DNA of 64,000 nt from positions 5,029 through 69,028 of the forward strand of contig JAEUKY010000332.1 in assembly GCA_016794005.1 (NCBI GenBank), written 5' to 3'. Position numbers and translations under genes: made by a program. Below, piece by piece: positions 5,644-41,771 of the stretch (positions within the stretch are counted from its first letter, which is position 1; every line of letters begins with the position of its first letter). The notes under the pieces are model-generated. The model had not been told where the DNA came from. It saw nothing but the letters and a program-made list of their open reading frames with translations, and did no database searches. The DNA comes from Rhodospirillales bacterium (GTDB lineage: Bacteria > Pseudomonadota > Alphaproteobacteria > CACIAM-22H2).

Positions 5644-7575
5644 TCACGCCCAGCGCTTGCGCCATGCCTGAAACATCAGCACGGTCCACAGCCTGTAGGT
5701 CCGGTCCGCGCCGCCCAGATGGGCGCGCCACGCGTGTGCGACCGGGGCCGGATCGAGGATTCCGTCTGCAACGATGGCTGCGGGTGCGAGCAGGTCTTCG
5801 GCCCATTCGCGCAACGGTCCGCGCAGCCATTCGCCGACCGGAACCGCGAAGCCCATCTTGGGCCGTTCGAACAGGTCGCGCGGGACGTATCGCGACAGGA
5901 CTTCGCGCAGGATCCGCTTGCCCTTGCCGCCGTCGACCTTGAGTTCCGGCGGCAGCGTCCACGCATGCTCGACGACGCGATGGTCGAGGAAGGGATTTCG
6001 CGCCTCGAGAGCCACCGCCATCGTCGCGCGATCAACCTTCGTCAGCACGTCGTCCGGCAGGTAGCCAAGCGTGTCGAGAAGCTGCATGCGCGGGCCGAAC
6101 TCCGGAATCGCCCCCGCGATGCCGGGGTCGTCGGCCGGTCCTGGAGCTTCGCGCGCGCCGGGGACCAGCATGGCCGGATCGGGCCACTGACTCACCAGCT
6201 CGCGATAGAGTGCGTGCGCATCGTCCGCTTCCAGCAGTGCCGCAAGTTTCGCCGCCTTCTCGGCCGGCCGCACCGGTCGCCGCGCGGCCGGGAGCGGCCG
6301 CAGGAGCGCCTCGAGGATTCCGGCCGGTGCTGCACGCAGCGCGCATGCGGCAACCCGGCGCAGCCCGTGCGGCAGACGAACGAGCCGTTCGAGCCGGCTT
6401 GCCCAGACATGCCGGTTGTAGCCCGCGAAGACCTCGTCGCCGCCGTCGCCGGAAAGCGCCACCTTCACATGCGCGCGCGTCATCCGCGCGACGAGGTAGG
6501 TCGGGATCTGCGAAGCGTCGGCGAAGGGTTCGTCGTAAATCTCGGGCAGGTTCTGGATGACGTCGCGCGCGTGCGACGGGTCGACGTGCAGTTCCGTGTG
6601 GTCGGTGCCGAGATGGGCAGCGACGGCTGCAGCGTGACGCGCCTCGTCATAGTCGGTGCGGTCGTAGCCGATCGTGAAAGTGCGCACCGGGCGGCTGCTC
6701 TGCGCCTGCATCAGCGCCACGACCGTCGACGAATCGATGCCGCCGGACAGGAAGGCGCCAAGCGGCACGTCGGCGACCATGCGTCTTGCGACGGCGTCGA
6801 GCAGCAGCTTGTCGAGCGTCTCGACGGTGCTTCCGGGATCGGCGGGGGCGTTCCAGGACGCTCGGCCGCGCTCGGCTACCGCACGGGCGGACCAGTAGGT
6901 CTCCGTCGAAGGTTCGCTTCCTTCGCGCCACACAAGCAGCGTGCCCGGCAGCAGTTTGCGAGACTCCTTGTAGATGGTCGCTGCGCCGGGCACGTTCGCG
7001 TGCCGGAAGTACGAGACAAGCGCATCCCGGTCGATCGACGGGGCGAATCCGGGTGCGGCGCGCAGCGCCTTCAGTTCCGAACCGAAGACGAGGCGCGTTC
7101 CGTCGCAGGCGTAGTAGAGCGGCTTGACGCCCAGCCGGTCGCGCACGAGCCAGAGCGAGCGCTCTTTCCGGTCCCAGAGCGCTATCGCGAACATGCCGAC
7201 GAGCCGCGCCAGCGTTTCGCGCACGCCCCAGCGCGCGATCCCCTCGATCATCACCTCGGTGTCGGATGTGCCACGGAACTGCACGCCGACCCGTACAAGT
7301 TCGGCGCGCAGATCGCTGAAATTGAAGATCTCGCCGTTGTAGGTGACGACCCAACGCCCGTCGGAAGAGTGCATCGGCTGCACGCCGGTCGGCGAAAGGT
7401 CCACGATCGCGAGGCGGCGGTGTGCGAGCGCAATGCCGGCGGCCGCATCTGTCCAGATTCCGTCGCCGTCCGGCCCGCGATGCGCGAGCACGTCGTTCAT
7501 CAAGCGCACCGCGGCGACGAGTGGCTCGTCGGCGAGCCTCGAGCGGCGGTCGAGCAATCCGGTGATGCCACACAT
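5644..7575 (-). CDS. asnB: Asparagine synthase (glutamine-hydrolysing) family amidotransferase, glycan-cluster paralog
   Basis: The start is trimmed to MCGITG (nucleophile Cys directly after Met; cat at 7573-7575 on the plus strand). It has the PP-loop LSGGIDSSTVVALM and is 643 aa after trimming ORF 5644..7677. Confidence 0.85.
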   Translation of the reverse strand: MCGITGLLDRRSRLADEPLVAAVRLMNDVLAHRGPDGDGIWTDAAAGIALAHRRLAIVDLSPTGVQPMHSSDGRWVVTYNGEIFNFSDLRAELVRVGVQFRGTSDTEVMIEGIARWGVRETLARLVGMFAIALWDRKERSLWLVRDRLGVKPLYYACDGTRLVFGSELKALRAAPGFAPSIDRDALVSYFRHANVPGAATIYKESRKLLPGTLLVWREGSEPSTETYWSARAVAERGRASWNAPADPGSTVETLDKLLLDAVARRMVADVPLGAFLSGGIDSSTVVALMQAQSSRPVRTFTIGYDRTDYDEARHAAAVAAHLGTDHTELHVDPSHARDVIQNLPEIYDEPFADASQIPTYLVARMTRAHVKVALSGDGGDEVFAGYNRHVWASRLERLVRLPHGLRRVAACALRAAPAGILEALLRPLPAARRPVRPAEKAAKLAALLEADDAHALYRELVSQWPDPAMLVPGAREAPGPADDPGIAGAIPEFGPRMQLLDTLGYLPDDVLTKVDRATMAVALEARNPFLDHRVVEHAWTLPPELKVDGGKGKRILREVLSRYVPRDLFERPKMGFAVPVGEWLRGPLREWAEDLLAPAAIVADGILDPAPVAHAWRAHLGGADRTYRLWTVLMFQAWRKRWA

Positions 7576-7619
7576 GAGGGATCGGGATTCCCGCTTCAGA
7601 ACCGGCCAGTCAAGCTTCA

Positions 7620-7636
7620 CGTTCATGACATGAACG
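7620..7636. promoter_or_regulatory. Perfect 8-1-8 palindrome CGTTCATG-A-CATGAACG (contains GTTC-N7-GAAC); candidate operator
   Basis: Read directly from the sequence. It lies 45 nt upstream of the asnB start codon (minus strand), in the AT-rich divergent intergenic region 7576-7758. Confidence 0.5.
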
Positions 7637-7699
7637 GCGGCGTCTGTCGACGATAAACCGCAGTTCTGGAATCTCAATAAGATATTGTTTTAATTTAAT

Positions 7700-7714
7700 G
7701 TTCAAATTCCGAAC
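7700..7714. promoter_or_regulatory. GTTC-N7-GAAC inverted repeat (GTTCaaattccGAAC); candidate operator
   Basis: Read directly. It is the second of three identically spaced GTTC-N7-GAAC sites within about 120 bp. Confidence 0.45.
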
Positions 7715-7718
7715 ACGA

Positions 7719-7750
7719 TTGACGTTCACCCAATGAACAGGGTATATACT
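7719..7750 (+). promoter_or_regulatory. Candidate sigma70-type promoter for the wHTH regulator (TTGACG-N18-TATATA), giving a near-leaderless transcript
   Basis: TTGACG lies at 7719-7724 and TATATA at 7743-7748. The ATG at 7759 has no Shine-Dalgarno-like sequence in between. The third GTTC-N7-GAAC site (7724-7738) overlaps the -35 element and spacer. Confidence 0.4.
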
Positions 7751-7758
7751 CAATTTCG

Positions 7759-8436
7759 ATGAATGAGACTCCGTCCACGAAATTCGATCGCGAGTCGTCC
7801 GAGTTGCTGCTCGGCGTCCTGTCGGTGGTCGAGCGCAATTCGAGCGTCACCCAGCGCGGCATGTCGAACCAGTTGGGAATCGCGCTCGGACTTGCAAATG
7901 CCGTACTCAAGCGTTGCGTACGCAAGGGTCTGATCAAGATTTCGACCGCCCCGCTCAACCGCTACGCCTACTACCTGACGCCGACGGGGTTCAGCGAGAA
8001 GGCGCGCCTGACGGCCGAGTACTTGCGCATCTCCTTCGATCTTTTTCGCAATGCACGGCGCCAGTACAACGAGATTTTCGAGGCCCTCGCCGCGCGCGGG
8101 CTCACGCGCATCGTACTTGTGGGGGCTTCCGAACTCGCGGAAGCGGCCCTGCTATCGGCACGCGAGACCCCGGTCGAGGTCGTCGGCTTCGTCGATACGG
8201 CGCGTGCGGGTGAAGACTATCTCGGCCTGCCGGTTGCCGGCTCGCTTGCCGCCTTCAGGGGCCAGTTCGACGCGGTCGCGATGTGCGACGTGCGCGATCC
8301 GCAGATGAACTATATCGCGGCACTCGACGAGGCGGCCGCTCTCCAGATCGATCCGCGGCGCGTTGTCGGCCCCGCGATCCTGCGTCTGCGGCCGCCGGCA
8401 CCGACCGAGGTCGCGGAACTGGCTGGTGGGTCGTGA
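7759..8436 (+). CDS. Winged-helix (MarR/EPS-associated type) transcriptional regulator fused to a C-terminal Rossmann-like domain
   Basis: The N-terminal ~110 aa (LLLGVLSVVERNSSVTQRGMSNQLGIALGLANAVLKRCVRKGLIKI...YYLTPTGFSEKARLTAEYL) resemble EPS-associated MarR-type wHTH proteins. The C-terminal part (RIVLVGASELAEAALL...VVGFVDT...YLGLPVAGSL) resembles the nucleotide-binding-like N-domain of polyprenyl-phosphate sugar transferases. Confidence 0.6.
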   Translation: MNETPSTKFDRESSELLLGVLSVVERNSSVTQRGMSNQLGIALGLANAVLKRCVRKGLIKISTAPLNRYAYYLTPTGFSEKARLTAEYLRISFDLFRNARRQYNEIFEALAARGLTRIVLVGASELAEAALLSARETPVEVVGFVDTARAGEDYLGLPVAGSLAAFRGQFDAVAMCDVRDPQMNYIAALDEAAALQIDPRRVVGPAILRLRPPAPTEVAELAGGS

Positions 8437-8936
8437 GCGGCTGGTTCGTCGTCCATACCCAGCCTTCTTCGGAACTGAGGGCGGAGGCCAATCTCCGCCG
8501 CCAGGGCTACGAGACCTATCTGCCCCTATACCGGCGGCGTCGCTCGCACGCCCGGCGCATCGAATTCGTCGATCGGCCGCTGTTTCCCCGTTACCTATTC
8601 GTCCGCTTCGATCCGTCGGCCGACCGCTGGCGCCCGATCCTCGGAACGTTCGGTGTCTGCGGGCTGGTGCGGTTCGGTGACGTTCCGGTCCCGGTTCCGG
8701 CAGGGATCGTCGATGCCCTGCGCGCCAGCGAAGCGGCGCGGACGTTCGACGATCCGGTCTCGCCGATGCGCAATCTCGGCGTCGGCGCGCAGGTCCGCGT
8801 CATCGCTGGCCCCTTTGCCGATCTGGTCGGCAAGTTCAAGGCTCTCGCAGACATGGAGCGGGTCGTCGTCCTGCTCGACCTGCTGGGGCGCGAAGTATCC
8901 GTCCGTCTGTCCGAGAGGGCGGTCGCGGTGGCCTAG
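8433..8936 (+). CDS. NusG-paralog transcription antiterminator (RfaH/NusG-SP-like)
   Basis: The GTG start overlaps the upstream TGA (GTGA). The N-terminus is NGN-like (WFVVHTQPSSELRAEANLRRQGYETYLPL...RPLFPRYLFVRF) and the C-terminus is KOW-like (GAQVRVIAGPFADLVGKF). Length is 167 aa. Confidence 0.7.
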   Translation: MSGWFVVHTQPSSELRAEANLRRQGYETYLPLYRRRRSHARRIEFVDRPLFPRYLFVRFDPSADRWRPILGTFGVCGLVRFGDVPVPVPAGIVDALRASEAARTFDDPVSPMRNLGVGAQVRVIAGPFADLVGKFKALADMERVVVLLDLLGREVSVRLSERAVAVA

Positions 8937-9007
8937 GCCGCCGGCCCCGAAAGGGCGGGCGTTTCGCGAAGATATCGAAAAGCCGGGCGACATGCGGTCA
9001 CCCGGAG

Positions 9008-9019
9008 TGCGGTAGCCTG
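9008..9019 (+). promoter_or_regulatory. ops-like element TGCGGTAGCCTG (10/12 match to enterobacterial GGCGGTAGCGTG) in the operon leader
   Basis: It sits on the sense strand, about 70 nt after the RfaH-like stop and about 50 nt before the GTG start at 9073. Positional support only; a chance match is not excluded. Confidence 0.4.
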
Positions 9020-9072
9020 CCCGGATTTCGCCAGCAGATCCGCTTCACGTCAGAACGGAAAGTCCCGTCCAG

Positions 9073-10197
9073 GTGCAGTTCATCGACCTTCAGTCCCAGC
9101 GCGCGCGTCTGGGTACCGCTCTCGAGGACGCGATCCTGCGCGTCGTGCGCAGCGGCCAGTACATTCTCGGTCCCGAAGTCGCCACGCTCGAGCGTCAACT
9201 CGAAGCATTCTGCGGTGCGCGTCACGCGCTGACCGTCGCCAACGGCACCGATGCGCTTGCGCTCGCGTTGATGGCGTTCGGTGTGAAGGCCGGCGACGCC
9301 GTACTTGTCCCGTCGTTCACCTTCGCGGCGACCGGCGAAGTCGTCGTCTGGTTCGGCGCGACGCCGATCTTCGTCGACTGCCTGCCGGACACCTTCAACA
9401 TCGATCCGGCCAGCATCGAAGCGGGCATCGCGACCGCGAAGCGGCTCGGCCTGCGGCCCATCGGCGTCATCCCGGTCGATCTTTTCGGACTGCCGGCGGA
9501 TTACGACGCGATCGAAGCGATCTGCGCTGCGAACGCCATGTGGATTCTTGCCGATACCGCGCAGGGCTTCGGTGCTACCTACAAGGGACGGCGCACCGGC
9601 TCGATCGGACGGGTCGCGGCGACGTCGTTCTTTCCGGCGAAGCCGCTCGGCTGCTACGGCGACGGCGGCGCCATCTTCTTCGAAGACGATGCGCTGCTCG
9701 AACCACTCCTCTCGCTCCGCGTGCACGGCCAGGGCGTCGATCGCTATGACAACGTCCGGATCGGCATGAACGGCCGAATGGACACAATCCAGGCGGCCGT
9801 CCTGATCGAGAAGCTCAAGATCTTCCCGGACGAAATCGCCGCGCGCAACCGGATCGCGGAGCGCTATTCCGCAGCGCTTGAAAAGCACGTGATCGTTCCG
9901 CGCATACCGACCGGCCTGACGAGCGTCTGGGCCCAGTACACGATCCGCGTGCCTGACGGAAGGCGCGATGCGGTTGCCGCGAAACTCAAGGAGGCGGGTA
10001 TCCCGTCTGCGATCTACTACGTCAAGCCGATGCACAGGCAGACCGCGTACTCGGAATATCCGGTCGCCGCGAACGGGTTGCCGGTAAGCGACGTGCTCGC
10101 AGGCGAGGTGTTGAGCCTGCCGATGCATCCGTATCTGTCCGAAGCCGATCAGGATCGCATCGCGTCGACCGTGCGCGCGGCGCTCGAGGCGCGATAG
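9073..10197 (+). CDS. DegT/DnrJ/EryC1-family PLP-dependent sugar aminotransferase, WbpE-like
   Basis: MQFIDLQSQ...GQYILGPEVATLERQLEAFCGARHALTVANGTDAL and SFFPAKPLGCYGDGGAIF closely resemble WbpE-type 3-oxo-sugar aminotransferases. The start codon is GTG, with GGAAAG about 10 nt upstream. Confidence 0.85.
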   Translation: MQFIDLQSQRARLGTALEDAILRVVRSGQYILGPEVATLERQLEAFCGARHALTVANGTDALALALMAFGVKAGDAVLVPSFTFAATGEVVVWFGATPIFVDCLPDTFNIDPASIEAGIATAKRLGLRPIGVIPVDLFGLPADYDAIEAICAANAMWILADTAQGFGATYKGRRTGSIGRVAATSFFPAKPLGCYGDGGAIFFEDDALLEPLLSLRVHGQGVDRYDNVRIGMNGRMDTIQAAVLIEKLKIFPDEIAARNRIAERYSAALEKHVIVPRIPTGLTSVWAQYTIRVPDGRRDAVAAKLKEAGIPSAIYYVKPMHRQTAYSEYPVAANGLPVSDVLAGEVLSLPMHPYLSEADQDRIASTVRAALEAR

Positions 10198-10208
10198 GGA
10201 TCAACGCA

Positions 10209-11252
10209 ATGACCGCACTTACAAGGCCGTTCGACAAGCCGTTCCACGATCTGCGCGGCGCGTCGATCCTGATAACCGGCGGTACGGGTTCGTTCGGCCG
10301 CGCGTTCGTCGCGCGCCTACTCGCCCTTCCGACGCCGCCCGATCGTATCGTGATCTTCTCGCGCGACGAGCAGAAGCAGGAAACGATGGCGCGCGAATGG
10401 TCGGGGCGCCCCGACCTGTACGACCGCCTGCGCTTCTTCATCGGCGATGTCCGCGACGCCCAGCGGCTCGAACTCGCCATGCGCGGGGTCGACCACGTGG
10501 TCCACGCGGCGGCCCTCAAGATCGTGCCGATCGCCGAGTACAACCCGTTCGAATGCGTCCTCACGAATGTCCATGGTGCCGAGAACGTCGTCAAGGCGGC
10601 GCTGCGCAACCAGGTGCGCAAGGTGATCGCGCTGTCGACCGACAAGGCCGCCAATCCAGCCAATCTCTACGGTGCGACGAAGCTGGCGTCCGACAAGATC
10701 ATGGTCGCGGCGAACAATCTGTCCGGCGATCTGGGCACGCAGTTCTCGGTCGTCCGGTACGGCAACGTCATCGGCAGCCGCGGTTCCGTCGTGCCGCTCT
10801 TCCGCTCGCTGATCGCGTCGGGCGCCAAGAGCTTGCCGATCACCGACCCGCGCATGACGCGCTTCCTCATCACACTCGAGCAGGGTGTCGCGTTCGTGCT
10901 GTCCAGTTTCGGAACGATGCGGGGCGGCGAGATCTTCGTGCCGAGGATTCCGTCGATGAAGATGGTCGATCTGGCGCGCGCACTGGCCCCTGGTCTGCCG
11001 CACGAGAATGTCGGCATCCGTCCCGGCGAGAAGCTGCACGAAGTGATGATCACCGAGGACGATGCCCGCATGACGCTCTCATTGGGCGACCGCTTTGCGA
11101 TCTGCCCGGCAAACCGGAACTGGACCGATGCGCACCTGCGCGCGCTCGGTGGAATGCCGGTCGACGAAATGTTCCGCTATGGCTCGGACAACAACGACGA
11201 ATGGCTCGATGCGGCCGGCCTCCTCGCGATCGTCGGAGGGTCGAAACCTTGA
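10209..11252 (+). CDS. pseB: UDP-N-acetylglucosamine 4,6-dehydratase (inverting), PseB/FlaA1 type
   Basis: ILITGGTGSFG, FFIGDVRD, VVHAAALKIVPIAEYNPFECVLTNVHGAENV and STDKAANPANLYGATKLASDK are typical of PseB. Confidence 0.9.
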   Translation: MTALTRPFDKPFHDLRGASILITGGTGSFGRAFVARLLALPTPPDRIVIFSRDEQKQETMAREWSGRPDLYDRLRFFIGDVRDAQRLELAMRGVDHVVHAAALKIVPIAEYNPFECVLTNVHGAENVVKAALRNQVRKVIALSTDKAANPANLYGATKLASDKIMVAANNLSGDLGTQFSVVRYGNVIGSRGSVVPLFRSLIASGAKSLPITDPRMTRFLITLEQGVAFVLSSFGTMRGGEIFVPRIPSMKMVDLARALAPGLPHENVGIRPGEKLHEVMITEDDARMTLSLGDRFAICPANRNWTDAHLRALGGMPVDEMFRYGSDNNDEWLDAAGLLAIVGGSKP

Positions 11253-12433
11253 GTGCAGGCATCCTTCCCTACGGCCGGCAGACGATCGAGGACGACGACG
11301 TCGCGGCGATCGCGGCCGCGATGCGGGGCGACTTCCTCACGACCGGGCCGACCGTCGCGAAGTTCGAAGCCGCCTTCGCGACGGCGACCGGTGCGGCACA
11401 TGCCGTCGCGTCGAATTCCGGAACCGCAGCGCTCCATCTGGCGGCACTCGCTCTCGATCTCGGTCCCGGGGATGCGGCCATCGTTCCGAGCGTCACGTTC
11501 CTTGCGACCGCGAATGCGGTGCGCATGACGGGCGCCGACGTCGCGTTCGCCGATGTCGATCCAGAGACCGGCCTGCTGCGGCCGGCCGACATGCTCGATG
11601 CGCTTGCGCGCGCCCGCGCGCGCGGCTGGCGCGTGCGGGCAGCGTTCCCGGTCCATCTCAACGGCCGGATCTGCGACATGCCGGCCCTTGCCGAGGCCGC
11701 ACGGCCGCACGGCATGGCACTCGTCGAGGATGCGTGCCATGCGCTCGGTGCTGCCGATGTCGGGGCCTGCCGGCACTCCTTCGCCGCAGTGTTCTCGACC
11801 CATGCGGTCAAGGCGATCGCGACGGGCGAGGGTGGTGTCACGACGACGGCCGACCGGCAGGCCGCACGCAGGATGGCAGCGCTTCGCTCGCACGGCATGG
11901 AGCGTGACCCGACGGCTTTCGTCGACCGTGCGGCGGCCTTCGACGACAACGTGCCAAACCCCTGGTACTACGAGATGCCGGAAATCGGCTGGAACTACCG
12001 ACTTCCGGATGTGCTCTGCGCGCTGGGCCTGAGCCAGTTGCCTAAGCTCGCGCGCTTCCAGGCGCGCCGGCAAGCGATCGCGGCACTGTACGATCGGCTG
12101 CTGGCACCGCTCGCACCGATGCTGCGCCCGGTGCCGCGCGAAGGGGCGGCGCACGGCCTGCACCTCTTCGCCGTGCTCGTCGACTTCGCGGCACTCGGAA
12201 CCACGCGCCGCCGGTTCGTGGAAGCGCTGCGCGCGGACGGCATCGGCACGCAGGTCCATTACAAGCCCGTCCATACGCAGCCCTATTACGTCGAGCGCTA
12301 CGGCACGCTGACCCTGCCGGGTGCGGACGCATACTACGCGCGCTGTCTGTCGATCCCGTTCTATCCGACACTGTCGGACGCGGATGTCGAGCGCGTGGCC
12401 AACTCGCTCGCCCGGCTCGTGGCGGCCCGGTGA
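11249..12433 (+). CDS. pseC: UDP-4-amino-4,6-dideoxy-N-acetyl-beta-L-altrosamine transaminase, PseC type
   Basis: A TTG start overlaps the pseB TGA. ILPYGRQTIEDDDVAAI...LTTGPTVAKFEAAFA...SNSGTAALHLA...HAVKAIATGEGG follows the PseC N-terminal and Lys-region pattern. The upstream part of ORF 10397..12433 overlaps pseB and was trimmed. Confidence 0.85.
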   Translation: MSAGILPYGRQTIEDDDVAAIAAAMRGDFLTTGPTVAKFEAAFATATGAAHAVASNSGTAALHLAALALDLGPGDAAIVPSVTFLATANAVRMTGADVAFADVDPETGLLRPADMLDALARARARGWRVRAAFPVHLNGRICDMPALAEAARPHGMALVEDACHALGAADVGACRHSFAAVFSTHAVKAIATGEGGVTTTADRQAARRMAALRSHGMERDPTAFVDRAAAFDDNVPNPWYYEMPEIGWNYRLPDVLCALGLSQLPKLARFQARRQAIAALYDRLLAPLAPMLRPVPREGAAHGLHLFAVLVDFAALGTTRRRFVEALRADGIGTQVHYKPVHTQPYYVERYGTLTLPGADAYYARCLSIPFYPTLSDADVERVANSLARLVAAR

Positions 12434-13152
12434 AGACCGCCGTCGTCGTCCAGGCAAGGGTCGGGTCGAGCCGACTGCCCGGTAAGGTCCTGAAGCCGCT
12501 CGGTCCGAGAACCGTGCTGGAAGAAGTGCTGCGCCGCTGCGCCGCCGTGCCGGGTGCGGGCATCGTCGTCTGCGCGATACCCGACGGCGCCGCCGCCGAA
12601 CCCATAGCACGTCTCGCGCAGGCCGCCGGTGCTGTCGTCGTGCGTGGTCCTGAAGCCGACGTGCGCGCGCGCTACTTGCTTGCGGCAGATGCCGTCGGTG
12701 CCGACATTGTCCTGCGCGTGACGTCCGACTGCCCGTTGATCGATCCGGAGCTTTGTGCGGCGGTCCTAGCGACGCGCGCGGCGGCGGGTGCCGATTACTG
12801 CGCCAACAACATGCCGCCGTCGTTCCCGCACGGACTCGACTGCGAGGCCTTCACGACGCCGGCACTGCGACGAGCGGTTGCGTCCGACGGATCCGATGAC
12901 GATCGCGAACACGTCACTCCGTGGCTGCGCCGTTCCGAAGGAATCTCGCGCGCAGCGCTCGTCGGTCCCGGCGGCGCGTTCGCCGGACAGCGCTGGACGC
13001 TTGACTGGCCCGAAGATCTCGATTTCCTGCGCGCCGCAGTCGATCTCGCCGGCGAACGCGATCACTTCGTCCCGTGGTTCGATCTCGCGGCGCGCCTCGC
13101 CGCACGCCCGGACCTGCTTGCGATCAATTCCGTGCGCCAGCAGGCGCGCTGA
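12430..13152 (+). CDS. SpsF/FlmC-type cytidylyltransferase-fold protein (candidate CMP-nonulosonate synthetase)
   Basis: The GTG start overlaps the pseC TGA. VVVQARVGSSRLPGKVLKPL and RVTSDCPLIDPE match the SpsF-like nucleotidyltransferase pattern. Confidence 0.7.
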   Translation: MKTAVVVQARVGSSRLPGKVLKPLGPRTVLEEVLRRCAAVPGAGIVVCAIPDGAAAEPIARLAQAAGAVVVRGPEADVRARYLLAADAVGADIVLRVTSDCPLIDPELCAAVLATRAAAGADYCANNMPPSFPHGLDCEAFTTPALRRAVASDGSDDDREHVTPWLRRSEGISRAALVGPGGAFAGQRWTLDWPEDLDFLRAAVDLAGERDHFVPWFDLAARLAARPDLLAINSVRQQAR

Positions 13153-13165
13153 TTTACGACTTTCC

Positions 13166-13171
13166 AAGGAG
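13166..13171 (+). promoter_or_regulatory. Consensus Shine-Dalgarno AAGGAG 8 nt upstream of the radical SAM gene start
   Basis: Read directly. It lies in the largest intergenic gap (27 nt) of the 23-gene run. Confidence 0.6.
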
Positions 13172-13179
13172 TCCACCCG

Positions 13180-14274
13180 ATGGCCAAACAAGCCGAATCT
13201 GAGTCCGCTGTGGTCGACACGCCCGATCGTCATGTGCCGGAATACATGGCCTCACACGGCCAGGAGACGGTCGAGCAGAAGCTGCTGCGCAACCAGGTGC
13301 CGAAGTTTGGACAGAAATTCGCAGACTATCGCGCGGAGTATTTGCGCAGCCTGAACTACGACAAGGAGGATTACGTCGCAGGCTTCCCGATCACCCTCAA
13401 CATCGAGCTGGTCAACCGCTGCAATCTCTCCTGTATCATGTGCTACACGATCAATCACAAGGGCGAGAAGCACACGCTGTCGCTCGATCAGATGCGAGGG
13501 ATGGCCAAAGAAATCAAGGCCCACAATCTTCCCGCGATGATCGTCGGGTTGGGTTCGGAAGCGCTGCTCTACAAGGATTTCAAGAACGTCCTCGACATCT
13601 GCCTCGAAGCGGGCGTGATGGACCTGATCCTGTACACCAACGGTGTGCTGCTGACGCGCGAAACGTCGGAGTACCTCGTCCGTTCCGGCATTTCGCGCAT
13701 CCACGTCTCTCTCGACGCCGCGACACCGGAAACCTACGTCAAGATTCGCGGTAAGCCGGAACTCGACCGCATCGAGAAGAATATCGAGACGTTTCTCGAA
13801 GTGCGCAAGTCGCTGGGCTCGGAGTTGCCGATTCTGCGCGTCGCGTTCTGCGTCCAAGCGGAAAACCTCCACGAGCGCGAGGCTTTCCGAAAGAAATGGG
13901 AAGGTAAGGCTGATCGCGTCGACTTCCAGCTCATGGCCCCCGAAAAGCACGTCGACGATGTCAAGAATGCGACGCCTGACCTCGCCAAGAAGGTCGGCTT
14001 TTTCCACAAGGAGCTGCTCGACAAGCCGTGGTGCTCGATGCCGTTCAACTCGCTCAGTGTCTGGGCGGACGGTGGAGTGACGCCGTGCTGCTCGTTCATG
14101 GGCAAGAACCTGACGCTCGGCAACATCAAGGAAAGCTCCCTCGAGGAGATCTGGCGCGGCGAGAAGATTGAAAAACTCCGCAACGAGTTCCGCACTGGGA
14201 AGCTGAATCCGTCGTGCGAGCTCTGCATCTCGGGTCGCGATCTCGACTCTTTCCGCAAGCAGCTCGAGGACTGA
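13180..14274 (+). CDS. Radical SAM enzyme with a C-terminal SPASM/twitch-like Cys-rich domain
   Basis: It has a CNLSCIMC (C-x3-C-x2-C) cluster motif after ITLNIELVNR. The C-terminal Cys cluster is WCSMPF...TPCCSF...NPSCELC. G+C is visibly lower than in neighbours (hand counts of 34/60 and 32/60 on lines 13441 and 13501). Confidence 0.85.
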   Translation: MAKQAESESAVVDTPDRHVPEYMASHGQETVEQKLLRNQVPKFGQKFADYRAEYLRSLNYDKEDYVAGFPITLNIELVNRCNLSCIMCYTINHKGEKHTLSLDQMRGMAKEIKAHNLPAMIVGLGSEALLYKDFKNVLDICLEAGVMDLILYTNGVLLTRETSEYLVRSGISRIHVSLDAATPETYVKIRGKPELDRIEKNIETFLEVRKSLGSELPILRVAFCVQAENLHEREAFRKKWEGKADRVDFQLMAPEKHVDDVKNATPDLAKKVGFFHKELLDKPWCSMPFNSLSVWADGGVTPCCSFMGKNLTLGNIKESSLEEIWRGEKIEKLRNEFRTGKLNPSCELCISGRDLDSFRKQLED

Positions 14275-14278
14275 CGCG

Positions 14279-15955
14279 TTGGATCTCGGTCGCGAAATCC
14301 TCCGGGTACGGCGCTTCGCGGGCGAGACGCTCGACCGTTTGCGCGCACTGGGGCCGGCCGCGCGTGCTCGCGCGGCGCGCGTGCAGCGCCTGCGCGATGC
14401 TGGTGACGGACTGATGCGTACACTGTCCGACGGCGCCGTACCCGGCGGCCGCGCGGCGGTCGCCGGGCGCGTGCTTGTGGACGGCACCTGGGACAACGCG
14501 AATTACTGGTTCCGCTTCGCCATGGTCCGCCGCGCGCTCGGCCTCTCTGGCGTCACGATGACCGGTCTCGTCGGCGCGTTCCGCCGTGGGGAAGTCGCTG
14601 CGACGTTCGAGCGTTTTGGCGTGGACGCGCGGATTGATCTGCAGGCGCTATCCCGCATTGAGCCACGCCACCGCACCGCCGCGCGTACGCTACTCGCGCG
14701 CGTGCGAACGGCCGAGGATATCCTGCGGGCCGAGCTTCCTGGTGGGATGCCTGGAGAAATCTTCTATGACGGCGTGTTGAAGCGGCAACGCCGTGGGACC
14801 GCCGATCTCGCCGATCCACTGCTTCCCGACCATGTCGCCGAACAGTTCGCGAGTATAGATGCCGCCGTCCGCGTCCTGGACGAAGTCCGGCCAGATCTCC
14901 TTCTGCTGACACACGGACTCAATTTCTCGTATGGATCGCTTGCATGGGAAGGTATCCGGCGCGGCATCCCGGTGCTGCTGCTCTATGGCGACTTCGGGAC
15001 GACGCGCTTCGTGCGCCTGTTCTCGCGTGGTGACCTGTTCGTCTTCCCGTCACGTCCGAGCCGAGCGGAACTTGCAGGTCTTGCACCGGCAACGCGCGTG
15101 GCGCTGGAGCGTGTGGGTGCCGAGCAGCTCGAGCTTCGCCGCCGCGGCAGGACGAACGATATCGGCGGGCGATACGCCTATCGCGCTGGCGGCAGCGCAC
15201 TGTCGAAGGCCGAGATATGTCGGCGCTACGGATGGGATCCGGCGAAGCCGATCGTGGGCGTCTATGCCTCGAACCCGTTCGATTATCCGCATTGCACGGG
15301 CATGTACCATTTTCGCGACTTCGTCGAATGGAACCGCGAGACGGTCGCCGCTGCGGCACGCAATCCGCATGCGAACTTCCTCTGCAAGCCGCACCCGATC
15401 GACCGCCGATACGGCCTCAAGTACGGGGAAGGTCTTGCCGATGCGGTGATGGCTGTCGCGTCGGCGCATGTCCGGTTGGCGGACGAGGCGTGGTCGGGTG
15501 CTGAGCTGATGCGCTGCCTCGACGGCGCGGTCACGCATCACGGCAGCGTCGGGTTCGAAGCCGCCGCGATGGGCATTCCGGTCATGACCACGGATTGCGC
15601 CTGGTACGACGAGGTCGGCTTCGTCGCGCGTCCGGCCAGCAAGGCCGCGTATCTCGACAAGCTCGCTAGCGAATGGTGGCGCGACTGGCCGACGCAGGAA
15701 GCGATCTCGCTCGCGAATCTTGCCGCTGGGCTTTATTACGGCGTGCCCGATTGGCAGGGGGGCTACATTTTCCGCGACGACTCGGATCAGGATGCGATCT
15801 ACGAGACGCTGCCAGCCTTCATCGCGGATCACGGGGTTGCGATCGAACGCGAGATCGCGACGATCCGCGACTGGTACGATGCGGCGCATCCGTTCTTCCA
15901 CATGTTCAAGATGTTTCGCAGCAGCGGCTTTGGCATCGGCAATGCGACGGATTGA
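14279..15955 (+). CDS. Hypothetical protein; putative GT-B HP-motif transferase (KpsS/KpsC capsule-synthesis-like)
   Basis: 558-aa ORF with a TTG start at 14279 (an ATG alternative lies at 14414). NFLCKPHPIDR (KPHP at 15386-15397) is followed by VTHHGSVGFEAAAMGIPVMTTDCAWYDEVGFV. This resembles the HP motif and nucleotide-binding helix of capsule ulosonic-acid transferases. Assignment is by eye. Confidence 0.4.
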   Translation: MDLGREILRVRRFAGETLDRLRALGPAARARAARVQRLRDAGDGLMRTLSDGAVPGGRAAVAGRVLVDGTWDNANYWFRFAMVRRALGLSGVTMTGLVGAFRRGEVAATFERFGVDARIDLQALSRIEPRHRTAARTLLARVRTAEDILRAELPGGMPGEIFYDGVLKRQRRGTADLADPLLPDHVAEQFASIDAAVRVLDEVRPDLLLLTHGLNFSYGSLAWEGIRRGIPVLLLYGDFGTTRFVRLFSRGDLFVFPSRPSRAELAGLAPATRVALERVGAEQLELRRRGRTNDIGGRYAYRAGGSALSKAEICRRYGWDPAKPIVGVYASNPFDYPHCTGMYHFRDFVEWNRETVAAAARNPHANFLCKPHPIDRRYGLKYGEGLADAVMAVASAHVRLADEAWSGAELMRCLDGAVTHHGSVGFEAAAMGIPVMTTDCAWYDEVGFVARPASKAAYLDKLASEWWRDWPTQEAISLANLAAGLYYGVPDWQGGYIFRDDSDQDAIYETLPAFIADHGVAIEREIATIRDWYDAAHPFFHMFKMFRSSGFGIGNATD

Positions 15956-15968
15956 GGCCGACACTGCG

Positions 15969-16976
15969 ATGATCCCCGCATCCGCCAGCATTGCCCGTCT
16001 CCATGGTCCGGGCGATCTTCGTTTCGAAGACGAAGCGCTGCCTGCCGCGCCGGGGACGGGAGAGATCCTTGCGCGGACGCTCTGGTCCACGATCTCGCCC
16101 GGGACGGAGCTTGCGGCGTTCCAGGGTCTGCCGCCCCTGCGGCCTGGCCGCGTCTACCCGCGCCTCGTCGGCTACTGCAACGTCGCAGAGATTCTCGCGA
16201 TCGGCGTTGGCGTCGAAAGGCTTGTACCGGGTATGCGCGTGTTGACATGGCAGAGCCATCGTAGCGCTTTCATCGTGCCGGTCGCGGACGTACTGGCCAT
16301 CCTGCCGCCGGATGCTGATGCACGCGCAGCCAGTGCGGCCTATCTTTTCCATCTTGGTCTCGATGCCGTCCACCGGACCGGCATATCGCTTGGCCACAGG
16401 GTCGCGGTGCTTGGGATGGGGGTGCTCGGGCTTGGCGCTGCGGCGATGGCAGCACGGGCGGGCGCCGATGTTTCCGCGATCACCGCACGGCCGGAGATCG
16501 CAGGGATTGCGCGCGCGATGGGTGCCTGTGCCGTCGTCGGACCGGACGAAGCCGTCGCCGCGGCGCAGGCGACGGATGTCGGCGGTTTCGACAATGTCGT
16601 TTCGACGAGCAACCGGTGGCCGGACTGGGAGCTCGCCTTGCGTCTGGCGCGCAAAGGCGGAACGGTTTCTGTTCTCGGGTTTCCCGGCAGGGGCGAGCCG
16701 CCGTCGCCGTCCAATCCGCTTGCCTCGCAGTATTTCTACGACAAGCAGCTTCGCCTCGTCGCCTGCGGTCAGCCGGTCGAGCGCGATGCGCCGCCGGACG
16801 AGATTCGGTTCACGCTCAAACGCAACATGGCGGATATCGTCGGGCGCATCGCGCGCGGCGACCTGCCGGCCGGCCGCCTACTGACGGGCGAGTATCCCGC
16901 CGCGTCGCTTGCCGACGCATATCGGGCCCTTGCAGCGCGCCGCCCCGGCGACGTGACCTCCGTGCTCGCATGGTGA
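15969..16976 (+). CDS. Medium-chain dehydrogenase/reductase (zinc-type alcohol dehydrogenase-like) family oxidoreductase
   Basis: ISPGTELAAF, GYCNVAEIL and the Rossmann motif VAVLGMGVLGLGAAAMA are present. The start is taken at ATG 15969 (GAGG about 11 nt upstream). ATG 15942, which overlaps the upstream gene, is also possible. Confidence 0.6.
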   Translation: MIPASASIARLHGPGDLRFEDEALPAAPGTGEILARTLWSTISPGTELAAFQGLPPLRPGRVYPRLVGYCNVAEILAIGVGVERLVPGMRVLTWQSHRSAFIVPVADVLAILPPDADARAASAAYLFHLGLDAVHRTGISLGHRVAVLGMGVLGLGAAAMAARAGADVSAITARPEIAGIARAMGACAVVGPDEAVAAAQATDVGGFDNVVSTSNRWPDWELALRLARKGGTVSVLGFPGRGEPPSPSNPLASQYFYDKQLRLVACGQPVERDAPPDEIRFTLKRNMADIVGRIARGDLPAGRLLTGEYPAASLADAYRALAARRPGDVTSVLAW

Positions 16977-18052
16977 ATGCCGGATTGACGGCGGTCGTCG
17001 TCGGCTGCGGGGCCATGGGTGCATTCACGCGGCCTGGCACGCGCAGCGCGCTGCCACCGGGCTGGCTACCGCTCGCACACGCCGAAGCCGTCGTCGCGAC
17101 ACCCGGCCTCGTACTCATCGGCGTATGCGACAGCGATGCCGCCGTGTGCGAACGGGCATCGGCGCATTACGGCGTACCGGCCTTCGCCGACCACCGGGCG
17201 ATGCTGGCAGAACTGCGGCCTGCGATCGCATGCGTGGCGACGCGCACCGAGCCGCGGGTACGGACGCTCGTCGATTGTGCGAAGGCGGGCGTCAGGGGCA
17301 TGCATGCCGAGAAGCCGCTCAGCCGCTCGATGGAAGATGCACGGTGCGTCGCTGCGGCACTTGTGCAGGCAGGTGCTTCGTTCACCTACGGCGCGCTTCG
17401 TCGCTACCATGCAACCTATCTGCGCGCGGCGGCTCTGGTCGCCGACGGCGCCATCGGCGATCTGCGACAAATCGTCGTCGGGTTCGGGCGCCGGACAGCG
17501 ATGTGGACGCATGCACACTCGCTCGACGCGATGCTGTTCTTCGCCGGTGCGCCGGTGCGCATCGTGCAGGCGCGGATCGCCGTCGATCCCGGGTCCGTCT
17601 GCGAGACCGACGGCATTCCGACGATCGATGCCGATCCGACAATCGAGACCGGCTATGTCGCCTTCGAGAACGGCGTGAGCGGCCAGATCACGCAGCTTGA
17701 CGGATTCGACATCCTGCTTGCCGGCAGCTCCGGCACGCTGCGGATCGCGGCTGACGGCACGCGGATCGATCTTGACCGGACAGGCCCATCGACTGGGGGC
17801 TATTTCACCGCTACGACGAGCGAACCGGCCCTCTCGAGTCAACCGGGCGGAACGGCGCTTGCGCTTGGCCGGCTGTGCGGTTTCGTCGCGTCCGGCAAGC
17901 CGGACCAGACCGCACTCGATGCCGCAGTCGATGGCCAGCGCGCATTGTTCGCGATGCTTCTTTCGGGTTTGCGTGGCGGAATCGAGGTCGCACCCGGCGA
18001 CGTTCCCGACACGATGACCGTTACCGGACGGTCCGGCAACCTGTTCGCGTGA
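16970..18052 (+). CDS. Gfo/Idh/MocA family NAD(P)-dependent sugar oxidoreductase
   Basis: The ATG overlaps the upstream stop (ATGGTGA). It has the N-terminal Rossmann motif AVVVGCGAMGAF and the MHAEKPLS (EKP) motif. The upstream part of ORF 16616..18052 was trimmed. Confidence 0.7.
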   Translation: MVNAGLTAVVVGCGAMGAFTRPGTRSALPPGWLPLAHAEAVVATPGLVLIGVCDSDAAVCERASAHYGVPAFADHRAMLAELRPAIACVATRTEPRVRTLVDCAKAGVRGMHAEKPLSRSMEDARCVAAALVQAGASFTYGALRRYHATYLRAAALVADGAIGDLRQIVVGFGRRTAMWTHAHSLDAMLFFAGAPVRIVQARIAVDPGSVCETDGIPTIDADPTIETGYVAFENGVSGQITQLDGFDILLAGSSGTLRIAADGTRIDLDRTGPSTGGYFTATTSEPALSSQPGGTALALGRLCGFVASGKPDQTALDAAVDGQRALFAMLLSGLRGGIEVAPGDVPDTMTVTGRSGNLFA

Positions 18053-18068
18053 AGGACCGGCAGTACCG

Positions 18069-19478
18069 ATGAGCGTGACGCTCCATTGCGACGCAGGCCC
18101 GGGGATCGGGCTCGGGCACGTGTTGCGCAGTGCCGCACTCGGGGCGGAGTTCGTCCGCACCGGACGTCGTGCGCGCTTGCGCGTGCCGGTCGGTGCGGCG
18201 GTCGGTGTGCCCGATCGAGTGCGGCGTGTCCTACCTGTCGAAGAAGAGGGAATCCCCGCGCCAGCTACCGATATAGCAGTCATCGATTCCTACCGACCGA
18301 CGATGCACACGGTCGACGGGAAGGCGCGTCTGATCGCACTCCACGACGGAGATGGACCCTTGCCAGTCGCTGGCTTTCTGGTGAATGCCGCTGCCACCGA
18401 AAGCGACTATGCCAGCCGTACGACGGCTTCGTGCCGGCTTCTTCTCGGACCCCGCTACGCGTCAGTCGACGCAGCATTCGCCATCCGGCGTGCCGGAGCT
18501 CTGGCCGCGCGCACTTCGTGCGAGGTGCGAAGGGTCCTCGTTTCGTTCGGCGGCGACGATGCGGCCAACGCCACCGGACGCTCGCTCGACGCGCTCGAGG
18601 GGCGATCGGTCGAGATCGACGTCGCGCTCGGATCGGGCGCACGTCACGTTCGCGATATCGCCGCCCGCGCTTCGGCGCGCGTTCGTGTTCATATCGATAC
18701 GCCCGAGATGCCCGCCTTGATGGCGGATGCGGACATCGCGGTCGGAGCGGCTGGTTCGACGGCATGGGAGCGTTGCACTTTGGGACTGCCGACATTGATC
18801 GCGCGCCTTGCGGCAAACCAGAATGGCGTTGCGGACATGCTCGTTGGCGCCGGTGCCGCGGCCGACATCCGGTCGGTCGATGCCGGCTTCGAAACGCGTC
18901 TTGCCGCGGCATTCGACCGCGTGGCAGGAGATCGCGCGCTGCTGGTCTCGATGGCGGCGCAGGCGGCCGCCCTGTGCGATGGGCGCGGGACCAAGCGGAT
19001 CGTTCTTGCCGCCGTCGGCGACGAGACGGATCGGATGGGCCGCCGGATCCGCTTGCGTGCCGTCGAAGCCGCCGATGCGGCGTGGTTTCTCAATCTCCAG
19101 TCGCGGCCGGAGACACGCCGCTACGCACGCAATCCGGCCGTTCCGACGCCCGACGAACATCGGCTGTGGTTTGCGCGGATGCTCGCCAACGCCGCACATA
19201 CGCTGGCGGTAGTCGAGTGTGCGGACGTTCCGGCGGGCTTCGTGCGTCTCGATCCGACTTCTGCGGAAGAGATGCGCTTTGAAGTCTCGATCGCCGTTGA
19301 TCCGGCGTTTCACGGCAAGGGCGTCGGTTCGACCGCATTGCGACTGACGCGCGCCTGCGCGCGCGATGCGGTGCTGGAAGCCGAAGTGCATGAAGACAAT
19401 CGCGCATCCCGAGCGCTGTTCGCAGGCTGCGGCTACCGACCCACCGGGCCGGGCCGCCTGGAAAGCAGGCCCACATGA
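18069..19478 (+). CDS. pseG: Bifunctional PseG (UDP-2,4-diacetamido-2,4,6-trideoxy-beta-L-altropyranose hydrolase) / GNAT N-acetyltransferase (PseH-like) fusion
   Basis: The N-terminus VTLHCDAGPGIGLGHVLRSAALGAEF is PseG-like. The C-terminal ~150 aa (IRLRAVEAADAAWFLNLQ...VDPAFHGKGVGSTAL...NRASRALFAGCGY) are GNAT-like. Confidence 0.8.
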   Translation: MSVTLHCDAGPGIGLGHVLRSAALGAEFVRTGRRARLRVPVGAAVGVPDRVRRVLPVEEEGIPAPATDIAVIDSYRPTMHTVDGKARLIALHDGDGPLPVAGFLVNAAATESDYASRTTASCRLLLGPRYASVDAAFAIRRAGALAARTSCEVRRVLVSFGGDDAANATGRSLDALEGRSVEIDVALGSGARHVRDIAARASARVRVHIDTPEMPALMADADIAVGAAGSTAWERCTLGLPTLIARLAANQNGVADMLVGAGAAADIRSVDAGFETRLAAAFDRVAGDRALLVSMAAQAAALCDGRGTKRIVLAAVGDETDRMGRRIRLRAVEAADAAWFLNLQSRPETRRYARNPAVPTPDEHRLWFARMLANAAHTLAVVECADVPAGFVRLDPTSAEEMRFEVSIAVDPAFHGKGVGSTALRLTRACARDAVLEAEVHEDNRASRALFAGCGYRPTGPGRLESRPT

Positions 19479-20518
19479 CCTTCGCCATCAATGGACGCCG
19501 GATCGGCCCCGAGGCGCCGCCCTACGTCATCGCCGAGCTTTCGGGCAACCACAACGGTTCGCTCGACCGCGCGATCGCTCTGCTCGATGCGGCGCACGAG
19601 GCGGGTGCGGACGCGGTCAAGCTGCAGACTTATACCGCCGACACGCTGACGATCGATCATGACGGACCCGATTTCACCGTGCGCGGTGGCTTGTGGGACG
19701 GATCCACGCTCTACCAGCTCTACCGTCAGGCCCATACGCCGTGGGAATGGCACGAAGCGCTGTTCGCGCGCGGGCGCGAACTCGGCATCACCGTATTCTC
19801 GACGCCGTTCGATGCGACCGCGATCGATCTGCTCGAGCGTCTCGGGGCACCGGCCTACAAGATCGCTTCGTTCGAGGCCGTCGACCTTCCGCTCATCCGC
19901 CGCGTCGCATGCTGCGGCAAGCCGATGATCGTCTCGACCGGAATCAGCGACCTCGCCGAGATCGCCGCTGCGGTCGAAGCAGCCCGCAGCGCAGGCGCCA
20001 CTGATCTGGCGCTGCTGCATTGCGTGAGCGCCTATCCAGCACCACCAGAAGACATGAATCTGCGGACAATAGCGCATCTCGGTGCGACATTTGGCGCCGT
20101 GCCGGGCCTTTCGGACCATACGCTGGGCACGGCGGTCACCGTCGCGGCGGTGGCGCTGGGTGCCTGCGTGATCGAGAAGCACGTCACGCTTCGCAGGGCC
20201 GACGGCGGACCGGATTCCGCATTCTCGCTCGAACCCGAAGAATTCGCAGCACTGGTACGCGACGTGCGGACGGCGCACGCGGCCCTGGGGCGCGTCTCCT
20301 ATGAGCGCGAGCCCAGCGAACGCGGCATGGCGACGTTCCGACGTTCGCTCTATGCGATCGCCGACATCGCGGCAGGCGAGATTCTCACGGAAGCGAATGT
20401 CCGCTCGATCCGTCCGGGTTTTGGCCTGGCGCCCAAGCACTTCGACGCGGTTGTCGGCCGGCGCGCACGCCGGTCGATCGCGCGCGGGACCGCACTCGCG
20501 TGGAGCCTGATCGAGTGA
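19475..20518 (+). CDS. pseI: Pseudaminic acid synthase
   Basis: The start overlaps the upstream stop (ATGA). YVIAELSGNHNGSLDRAIALLDAAHEAGADAVKLQTYTADTLT, KIASFE and LLHCVSAYPAPPEDMNLRTI are typical of PseI/NeuB-family synthases. Confidence 0.9.
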   Translation: MTFAINGRRIGPEAPPYVIAELSGNHNGSLDRAIALLDAAHEAGADAVKLQTYTADTLTIDHDGPDFTVRGGLWDGSTLYQLYRQAHTPWEWHEALFARGRELGITVFSTPFDATAIDLLERLGAPAYKIASFEAVDLPLIRRVACCGKPMIVSTGISDLAEIAAAVEAARSAGATDLALLHCVSAYPAPPEDMNLRTIAHLGATFGAVPGLSDHTLGTAVTVAAVALGACVIEKHVTLRRADGGPDSAFSLEPEEFAALVRDVRTAHAALGRVSYEREPSERGMATFRRSLYAIADIAAGEILTEANVRSIRPGFGLAPKHFDAVVGRRARRSIARGTALAWSLIE

Positions 20519-23556: not shown

Positions 23557-23558
23557 CC

Positions 23559-27194: not shown

Positions 27195-27198
27195 CCGG

Positions 27199-27999: not shown

Positions 28000-28012
28000 C
28001 GGAACGACAGAC

Positions 28013-36176: not shown

Positions 36177-36369
36177 CTTTCTCGATCGGACGGGAAGGCC
36201 CCGCAGCAGCAATCTCATCGGGGGCAACGGGCGCTCCTCAATAGTCGCAAGGCCCGTTCCGGGTCAAGGCGGCCCTCGGCCGGAACGCGACAAAATGCTC
36301 CCCGGACAGTCCTTTACGGGGTCCGAGGCCTATGTTACTGCGGCCTTCGATCCGGGGCGCCGATTGTGG

Positions 36370-37153: not shown

Positions 37154-37161
37154 CGGGAGGC

Positions 37162-38103: not shown

Positions 38104-38105
38104 AA

Positions 38106-38885: not shown

Positions 38886-40735
<1,850 letters not shown>

Positions 40736-41766: not shown

Positions 41767-41771
41767 CGACG

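Follow-up and report, generated by a model that had tools for sequence, protein, structure and literature searches.

A conserved hairpin-ops element follows the gene for an RfaH-like NusG paralog at the head of an alphaproteobacterial glycan operon

The 64,000-nucleotide (nt) window analysed here, part of contig JAEUKY010000332.1 from a Rhodospirillales bacterium, carries a regulatory cassette at the head of a long glycan biosynthesis operon, and our subject is a short element of that cassette in which a hairpin is followed by a sequence resembling the ops site of Escherichia coli RfaH. All of the features lie on the + strand, in the order of a conserved probable promoter with operator-like palindromes (7700-7748), the gene for a MarR-like winged-helix regulator of 225 residues (7759-8436), the gene for a specialised, RfaH-like NusG paralog of 167 residues (8433-8936), the hairpin-ops site (hairpin, 8983-9005; ops-like site, 9008-9019), and 23 glycan genes (9073-33556). 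The regulator open reading frame (ORF) ends in a TGA (8434-8436) that overlaps the GTG (8433-8435) of the paralog ORF, and the two genes are thus joined by the GTGA coupling that a first-pass annotation of this DNA had described. The same annotation had placed a gap of 136 nt before the first biosynthetic gene, and this spacer indeed runs from 8937 to 9072, between the paralog stop codon and the GTG at 9073; it is the only gap of more than 27 nt among the 25 genes of the array. The source is a metagenome-assembled genome (MAG) of 3.67 Mb in 402 contigs that is 85% complete, in which a second target site or paralog could be missed.

The paralog had been described as having NGN-like and KOW-like halves, and Pfam recovered both, with the NGN domain matching PF02357 at 71.1 bits (cut-off 22.2) and the KOW domain giving a weak match of 18.6 bits, below its cut-off of 22.3. 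The closest NCBIfam model was that of RfaH. However, the protein did not reach the cut-off of either RfaH equivalog (TIGR01955, 124.5 versus 144.5 bits; NF006534, 78.5 versus 124 bits), nor those of the UpxY model (NF033644, 80.1 versus 100 bits) and the LoaP model (NF033641, 26.4 versus 125 bits). E. coli RfaH was also the best relative by sequence in the Protein Data Bank (PDB) (3.3e-14, compared with 7e-9 for NusG), and the alignment to entries 5ond and 2oug is ungapped over residues 3-100, such that residue numbers transfer directly. By this numbering, two of the five residues with which RfaH contacts ops are retained (R23 and Q24), and K10, H20, and R73 are replaced by Q, N, and F, respectively; across the paralog family, conservation of Q24 is 90% or more and position 73 holds hydrophobic residues. 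The RNA polymerase-binding residue F56 of RfaH is kept as well. The beta-hairpin of the NGN domain (residues 32-49) is very basic (YRRRRSHARR), with H39, A40, and R41 invariant or nearly so in the family, and the KOW domain is about charge-neutral by its sequence. Taken together, the protein appears to work like RfaH without being an RfaH orthologue in the strict sense: the earlier label of RfaH/NusG paralog holds for membership in the NusG family and for likeness to RfaH, but not at the level of an equivalog, nor for three of the five ops contacts.

The fold of the paralog was modelled with AlphaFold2 using 85 homologues, which yielded a mean predicted local distance difference test (pLDDT) value of 88.3 and a KOW domain in the form of a five-stranded beta-barrel (strands within residues 120-166, pLDDT 82-91). 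When the model was compared with known structures using Foldseek, both domains aligned with NusG and with fully recruited RfaH (8phk), whereas autoinhibited RfaH structures aligned through the NGN domain only; the NGN domain superposed on those of RfaH and NusG at 1.6-2.8 Å. At the interface through which RfaH autoinhibits itself, E48 is replaced by R and I93 by V, and F130 corresponds to F135. The modelled structure suggests that the paralog is probably not autoinhibited, a prediction that fits the trend reported in a 2026 preprint (PMC13015549), in which RfaH homologues predicted to be monomorphic tend to adjoin a long operon.

At a distance of 72 nt past the paralog stop codon, the + strand of the spacer reads TGCGGTAGCCTG (9008-9019), which matches the E. 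coli ops site GGCGGTAGCGTG at 10 of 12 positions, contiguous core GCGGTAGC (9009-9016) included, just as the first-pass annotation had stated. The 12-nt site of E. coli belongs to the class II pause sites and lacks a pause hairpin, and GCGGTAGC is common to all eight E. coli ops sites (PMC11685472). The core is the word that forms the non-template hairpin in E. coli (ops positions 2-9), and T11 and G12 of the pause are also kept, such that the letters of the pause consensus are retained for a pause at T11 (G at -10, a pyrimidine at -1, and G at +1). By analogy with U11 of the E. coli site, the pause RNA 3' end is predicted to lie at T9018. Judged within the window alone, the resemblance could be a chance match, and the caution voiced on this point when the site was first noted was justified: the window holds 14 two-mismatch matches to the E. 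coli 12-mer compared with 13.1 expected, and the GCGGTAGC core occurs 7 times in it compared with 2.6 expected. In E. coli and other enterobacteria, ops belongs to the JUMPStart leader. An Rfam scan of positions 7500-9300 with E-values up to 10 returned only noise, and the JUMPstart family (RF01707) was unmatched.

The conserved element extends over ~40 nt (8983-9019) and starts with a hairpin whose near-invariant 3' arm reads TCACCCG, followed by A-N-T, GCGGTAGC, and N-T-G, an order that is common to all instances found. In the window, the hairpin consists of a 5' arm at 8983-8991 (CCGGGCGAC), a loop at 8992-8996, and a 3' arm at 8997-9005 (GTCACCCGG) that contains TCACCCG at 8998-9004; it has eight pairs and one C x A mismatch and was recovered in both the minimum free energy (MFE) fold and the centroid fold. 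The overall folding energy of the 136-nt spacer is unremarkable (z = -0.19), and only the local hairpin is meaningful. A covariance model of the element, R1, matched positions 8979-9022 with 43.5 bits (E = 7e-11, the E-values of this home-made model being rough). The claim of an ops-like element is thus upheld as regards conservation and position, but the functional unit appears to be a hairpin plus ops of ~40 nt rather than 12 nt.

Two tests on the related loci described below supported the hairpin. Among helices that end in the fixed 3' arm, the best scored 18.7, compared with 10.2 ± 3.4 when the 5' parts were shuffled, with loops of 3-10 nt. In a covariance-model alignment of 52 instances, which was fitted to the structure and therefore favours pairing, 83% of cells paired compared with 27-52% for slid partners; six of the ten pairs changed on both sides, and none of 500 shuffles attained the observed values. 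Variable loop length together with covarying outer pairs points to a hairpin formed by a single strand rather than to a protein operator. Relative to the predicted pause at T9018, the last pair of the hairpin lies at -14 (the stem reaches -11 in other loci) and TCACCCG lies at -21 to -15; the hairpin is a probable nascent-RNA pause hairpin. The 3' arm is also conserved beyond what pairing needs, in that its A and C letters are near-invariant and the 5' partners mismatch in 8-11 of the 52 instances; this is the pattern to be expected if the duplex, or that strand, is read. Among 54 distinct instances of the ops-like part, and at positions that the search pattern did not force, C9 was found in all 54, T11 in 52, T1 in 47, and G12 in 44, with position 10 being free.

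These features bear on the possibility that the element acts at the RNA level only. It might keep the regulator and biosynthetic mRNAs apart as a hairpin for processing or stability, or it might be an RNA hairpin to which the KOW domain binds in the manner proposed for LoaP, GCGGTAGC then being read as RNA. Covariation of the hairpin at variable loop length is what an RNA structure would show, and LoaP has been proposed to recognise a leader RNA hairpin, according to work cited in PMC11685472. Nevertheless, the single-stranded part is letter for letter the E. coli non-template hairpin together with T11 and G12, which an RNA-stability element has no reason to keep, and the constancy of the A and C letters in the 3' arm, opposite 5' partners that vary, exceeds what an RNA helix requires. 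The nearly neutral KOW domain further differs from the positively charged KOW domain of the LoaP type, and the LoaP model score is only 26 bits. We consider an exclusively RNA-level function unlikely.

A second, GC-rich hairpin (8939-8961, centroid fold) lies directly past the paralog stop codon and is followed by TTTCG; it falls outside the conserved element. Comparable hairpins follow the paralog stop codon in four related loci (L012-L014 and L025), and the hairpin may act as a weak attenuator ahead of the proposed loading site.

To assess conservation, we compared 30 loci from relatives and 80 loci from public alphaproteobacterial genomes, among them Bradyrhizobium, Hyphomicrobium, Kiloniella, Xanthobacteraceae, and many MAGs; 105 distinct loci entered the position test. 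In 55 of the 105, GCGGTAGC occurs 48-102 nt (median, 65) past the paralog stop codon, and only 13 other copies occur in the 695 kb of the same loci (binomial P = 4e-120). Conservation of the 12-mer in related loci had been named by the first-pass annotation as one check to make, and its outcome removes the doubt about a chance match. With position-specific conservation at this level, the covariance-model match described above, and an extended motif that occurs just once in the 3.67-Mb assembly, namely in the spacer between the paralog gene and the first DegT gene, chance is a vanishingly improbable explanation of the site. The assembly likewise contains one copy of the paralog. Whole-genome counts of CACCC-N5-6-GCGGTAGC were not above those of a reversed control pattern, and the only informative property is where the motif lies with respect to the paralog.

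In 19 of the 30 loci from relatives, the element comes after the paralog, and the next gene encodes a DegT, Gfo/Idh/MocA-like, glycosyltransferase, or other protein. Since the downstream gene varies, the element travels with the paralog and not with a particular enzyme gene. The extended motif was found downstream of the paralog on the same contig and strand in 25 of the 30 paralog-bearing relatives, at distances from 50 nt to 10.2 kb (19 within about 100 nt and six at 1.3-10.2 kb). One genome of the same genus (G005) has three copies of the motif with an identical spacer, CACCCGGCGTGCGGTAGC (C2:9-26, C7:403875-403892, and C8:9554-9571), which reflect either several target operons or an assembly duplication. 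In two other loci, a hairpin-ops element is found 3.1-3.2 kb past the paralog, shortly before a MarR-like gene (L042:5456-5500 and L055:7593-7637), a layout that suggests tandem or rearranged cassettes.

We also determined the co-occurrence of element and paralog in a class-wide sample of 201 alphaproteobacterial genomes. Scores obtained with the paralog profile were bimodal, with paralogs at 100 bits or more and housekeeping NusG at 55-77 bits, and the paralog was present in 41 of the 201 genomes. Matches to the hairpin-ops model at E < 1e-4 were found in 19 genomes, 18 of which have the paralog (Fisher one-sided P = 1.7e-13), and in ten genomes the match directly follows the paralog gene. 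In the source assembly of the window (G000), the profile found the paralog alone. Its housekeeping nusG would be expected to be detectable because the profile finds that gene at 55-77 bits in most of the sampled genomes, and it probably falls within the missing 15% of the assembly.

Some strong sites lie far from the paralog. One genome (G084) has two of them, 31 kb and 770 kb away (C1:1492752-1492796 and C1:2232973-2233017), and in two others the site is upstream of the paralog on the opposite strand in a divergent arrangement (G134, C1:1050323-1050379; G104, C11:6559-6603). Such distant and divergent sites suggest that the factor can act in trans. Together with the sites 1.3-10 kb away in several relatives of the same genus, they led us to down-weight an obligate, co-translational loading of the factor in cis.

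Genome-wide co-occurrence also speaks to whether the element might be a hairpin-stabilised pause that is independent of the paralog, for instance one that synchronises ribosome loading, with the paralog acting elsewhere or non-specifically. RNA polymerase would pause at a consensus G-10, Y-1, G+1 sequence with a hairpin in suitable geometry even in the absence of a factor, the element has these determinants, and a factor that AlphaFold predicts not to be autoinhibited might load anywhere. However, element and paralog are physically linked and show strong co-occurrence across individual genomes, and a generic pause has no need of the invariant loop letters G4-G5-T6-A7. A pause that operates without the paralog therefore seems very improbable.

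The region upstream of the regulator gene provided a probable origin for the transcripts that cross the element. A -35-like TTGACG (7719-7724) and a -10-like GTATAT/TATATA (7742-7748) are separated by a spacer containing the palindrome GTTCA-CCCAA-TGAAC (7724-7738), and a second, imperfect palindrome, GTTCA-AATTC-CGAAC, lies at 7700-7714. Of 86 distinct related loci, 79 have one to three copies of the arrangement CTTGAC-GTTCA-N5-TGAAC ahead of the MarR-like gene. We infer from the sequence and its conservation that 7700-7748 is a probable sigma-70-type promoter with the operator of the regulator in its spacer, GTTCA-N5-TGAAC probably being autoregulatory. In the window, only about 10 nt separate the -10-like box from the ATG of the MarR-like gene, whose mRNA may have almost no leader. 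With the promoter at this location, the ops-like site would normally be reached by polymerases that started about 1.26 kb upstream and that have probably just transcribed the regulator and paralog genes. The 136-nt "leader" of the first-pass annotation does contain the element, but it is more likely an intercistronic spacer given that the conserved promoter is upstream of the MarR-like gene. A simple scan for -35/-10-like hexamers in 8937-9072 found none; an extra promoter inside the spacer could nonetheless exist.

The MarR-like protein itself has an N-terminal winged helix-turn-helix (wHTH) domain (Pfam HTH_24, E = 1.8e-6) and a C-terminal domain of about 120 residues. It did not reach the cut-off of the MarR_EPS equivalog TIGR04176 (61 versus 88 bits), which it matches in the wHTH part only (residues 16-102). 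Residues 118-169 in the C-terminal part weakly match the N-terminal, Rossmann-like part of NeuD/PglB acetyltransferases (E = 1e-3), and the C-terminal domain may be a ligand-sensing domain. About 88 of 110 loci have a homologue of this gene immediately before the paralog, on the same strand.

Because GGGTGA...TCACCC is a palindrome in DNA, the hairpin of the element could alternatively be a double-stranded site, either an operator for the MarR-like regulator or part of a promoter for the biosynthetic genes, and the frequent company of the MarR-like gene, as well as the two loci in which the element lies just upstream of a MarR-like gene, would be in keeping with this. The spacing of its arms, however, varies from 3 to 10 nt and its outer pairs covary, which a dimeric operator would not tolerate; moreover, the fixed-spacing palindrome GTTCA-N5-TGAAC in the promoter of the MarR-like gene is the obvious operator, and the failure to find promoter-like hexamers in 8937-9072 argues against the promoter version. 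We accordingly rejected GGGTGA...TCACCC as a MarR operator, and a double-stranded function of either kind seems very improbable.

Downstream of the spacer, 23 co-directional genes on the + strand span 24.5 kb (9073-33556) with no intergenic gap of more than 27 nt and with eleven junctions that overlap by 4 nt, an assignment based on Pfam matches, coding score, and spacing. Genes in this lower-GC glycan cluster were called by a codon-usage frame score rather than by GC3. The earlier description of a 23-gene, 24-kb run without room for promoters or terminators is borne out by these values, and the dedicated antitermination proposed along with it is what the sequence leads us to infer. The first gene (9073) encodes one of three DegT aminotransferases, and the other Pfam assignments comprise a PseB-like dehydratase, two cytidylyltransferases, a radical SAM/SPASM protein, an ADH, two Gfo/Idh/MocA proteins, a GNAT protein, NeuB, an amidohydrolase, a HisH/HisF-like pair, a formyltransferase, a methyltransferase, a GT2 glycosyltransferase, and an AsnB-like protein; ORFs 14279-15955, 23559-24542, and 28013-29173 had no Pfam match. 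NeuB, the two CMP-sugar-type cytidylyltransferases, the PseB-/PseC-like enzymes, the HisH/HisF-like pair, the radical SAM/SPASM protein, the formyltransferase, and the AsnB-like gene point to a modified nonulosonic acid, and the pathway as a whole would produce a glycan containing a pseudaminic/legionaminic-type nonulosonic acid, with tailoring enzymes and a GT2.

We rejected a continuation of the operon past 33556 since two minus-strand genes (33508-36227) break the + strand run. The AsnB-like gene, whose stop is at 33556, runs about 49 nt into the convergent minus-strand gene, which stops at 33508, and this overlap (33508-33556) showed no terminator-like structure. A second glycan run on the + strand (36410-51393), which encodes FkbM and other methyltransferases and an ABC transporter, gave no match to the hairpin-ops model. 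Positions 9000-28999 contain 21 weak terminator-like hairpins, about twice the number in shuffled sequence (11.7 ± 3.4); 14 of the 21 are on the sense strand and all are inside genes. This enrichment inside the operon is only suggestive.

Based on these observations, we propose that the RfaH-like paralog encoded just upstream loads at 8983-9019, which would combine the functions of a loading site and a pause site, a reading to which we assign a probability of roughly 80%. Transcription would most likely start at the conserved promoter before the MarR-like gene and run through the regulator and paralog genes until RNA polymerase meets an elemental pause at about T9018, programmed by G2...T11-G12. 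The nascent-RNA hairpin (8983-9005), ending at -14 from the pause, would stabilise the paused complex, and in its open bubble the non-template strand would display the small GCGGTAGC hairpin that E. coli RfaH reads. The NGN domain of the paralog would bind this displayed hairpin, and its basic beta-hairpin (residues 32-49) may also touch the near-invariant TCACCCG duplex at -21 to -15. Once loaded, the factor would stay on RNA polymerase, exclude NusG and Rho-dependent polarity, and suppress pausing through 23 tightly coupled genes over 24.5 kb.

Several observations weigh against this proposal. The paralog is below the RfaH equivalog cut-off, and since the K10, H20, and R73 contacts are absent, it must read this DNA word in another way. 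Within 130 nt of the paralog, about half of the related loci have no element, and some elements lie kilobases downstream, on another contig, or divergent from it. One genome, G069, has a good match (C16:275893-275936, E = 1.3e-5) and no paralog above the NusG score level, although it is the sole such exception among the 19 genomes with a strong match. Finally, the GC-rich hairpin and TTTCG that intervene between the paralog stop codon and the site could mean that a separate promoter feeds the operon.

The clade might further be a surviving intermediate step from NusG to the fold-switching RfaH of enterobacteria, with a constitutively open factor that has a beta-barrel KOW domain and no autoinhibition and that already relies on the full GCGGTAGC non-template hairpin without the K10/H20/R73 pocket, a bipartite signal of ~40 nt, and an ops word older than the fold switch. 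Specificity would in that case come from the hairpin-stabilised pause and from read-out of TCACCCG by the basic NGN beta-hairpin, with MarR-type control of factor synthesis and placement beside a single target adding to it, and the ops word would be common to Alpha- and Gammaproteobacteria. We regard this evolutionary scenario as tentative and somewhat doubtful.

RfaH and ops are the textbook case of sequence-targeted elongation control, with a mechanism defined only in enterobacteria, and UpxY was recently shown to use a different, extended site. The cassette described here is portable and heads variable surface-glycan clusters across Alphaproteobacteria, including cultivable Bradyrhizobium and Kiloniella, and the window provides a clean, single-target example of the element. 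If our proposal is true, the word would be read in a second, independent way, by a protein without most of the known contact residues, and the order of RfaH evolution, targeting before autoinhibition, would become testable. The element would also serve as a simple annotation marker for glycan operons under processive antitermination and as a compact part with which long heterologous operons could be driven in alphaproteobacterial hosts.

Among characterised systems, E. coli RfaH and ops are close to the present pair in that RfaH is its best relative of solved structure, the 8-nt core and T11/G12 are identical, R23, Q24, and F56 are kept, and the target is a long polysaccharide operon. They differ in that a covarying hairpin and the conserved TCACCCG precede the core here, G1 is replaced by T, and position 10 is free; K10/H20/R73 are Q/N/F and E48 is R in the protein, whose KOW domain was modelled as a beta-barrel and not as the autoinhibitory alpha-hairpin. 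In addition, RfaH comes from a monocistronic gene and functions in trans, whereas the paralog gene is embedded in cis beside one target.

The Bacteroides factor UpxY offers the closest parallel to the architecture of the site. It is recruited at elements of ~40 bp in which a hairpin of non-template DNA is accompanied by a pause hairpin that reaches -9 to -14 and is stabilised by NusA (Saba et al. 2024, PMC11685472). Its NGN domain contacts the upstream duplex near -16 to -24, as judged by a footprint at -21 and by substitutions at -18 to -16 that reduce protection, with these contacts probably being made by a basic beta-hairpin (PMC11685472). Seen in sequence only, the element in the window matches this architecture and its distances, with a multipartite layout of ~40 nt, a predicted non-template hairpin with GCG..AGC stems as in opsX, a probable pause hairpin, and a conserved upstream-duplex sequence, and the paralog resembles UpxY in its very basic NGN beta-hairpin, its embedding in the locus, and its association with a capsule or glycan operon. 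In contrast with Bacteroides, where the site is upstream of upxY, the site here follows the paralog gene; a UpxZ-type inhibitor is not evident, no search aimed at UpxZ having been made, and a MarR-like regulator is coupled to the paralog instead; and there is one factor per genome rather than eight, with the core word being that of E. coli and not YGCGNAGCR. The alphaproteobacterial element would thus join a UpxY-type architecture to the exact E. coli core word.

In the literature searched on alphaproteobacterial RfaH and ops, where the ranking favoured taxon names, we found the site nowhere described. In the survey by Wang et al. (2020, PMC7593976), 18% of the RfaH-like genes came from Alphaproteobacteria, in clusters that lie beside envelope-biogenesis genes and, in CL4, alongside an HTH (helix-turn-helix) regulator; in their account, recruitment is understood only for E. 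coli RfaH and no recruitment site is defined for the alphaproteobacterial clusters. The present cassette resembles these clusters as judged by the cluster descriptions only. Bacillus LoaP, for its part, is likewise a NusG paralog encoded within a long biosynthetic operon, and a hairpin in the leader is implicated in its recruitment; the paralog in the window is set apart from LoaP by a LoaP model score of 26 bits against a cut-off of 125, by a KOW domain that is not strongly basic, and by a conserved single-stranded word that is the ops core of DNA.

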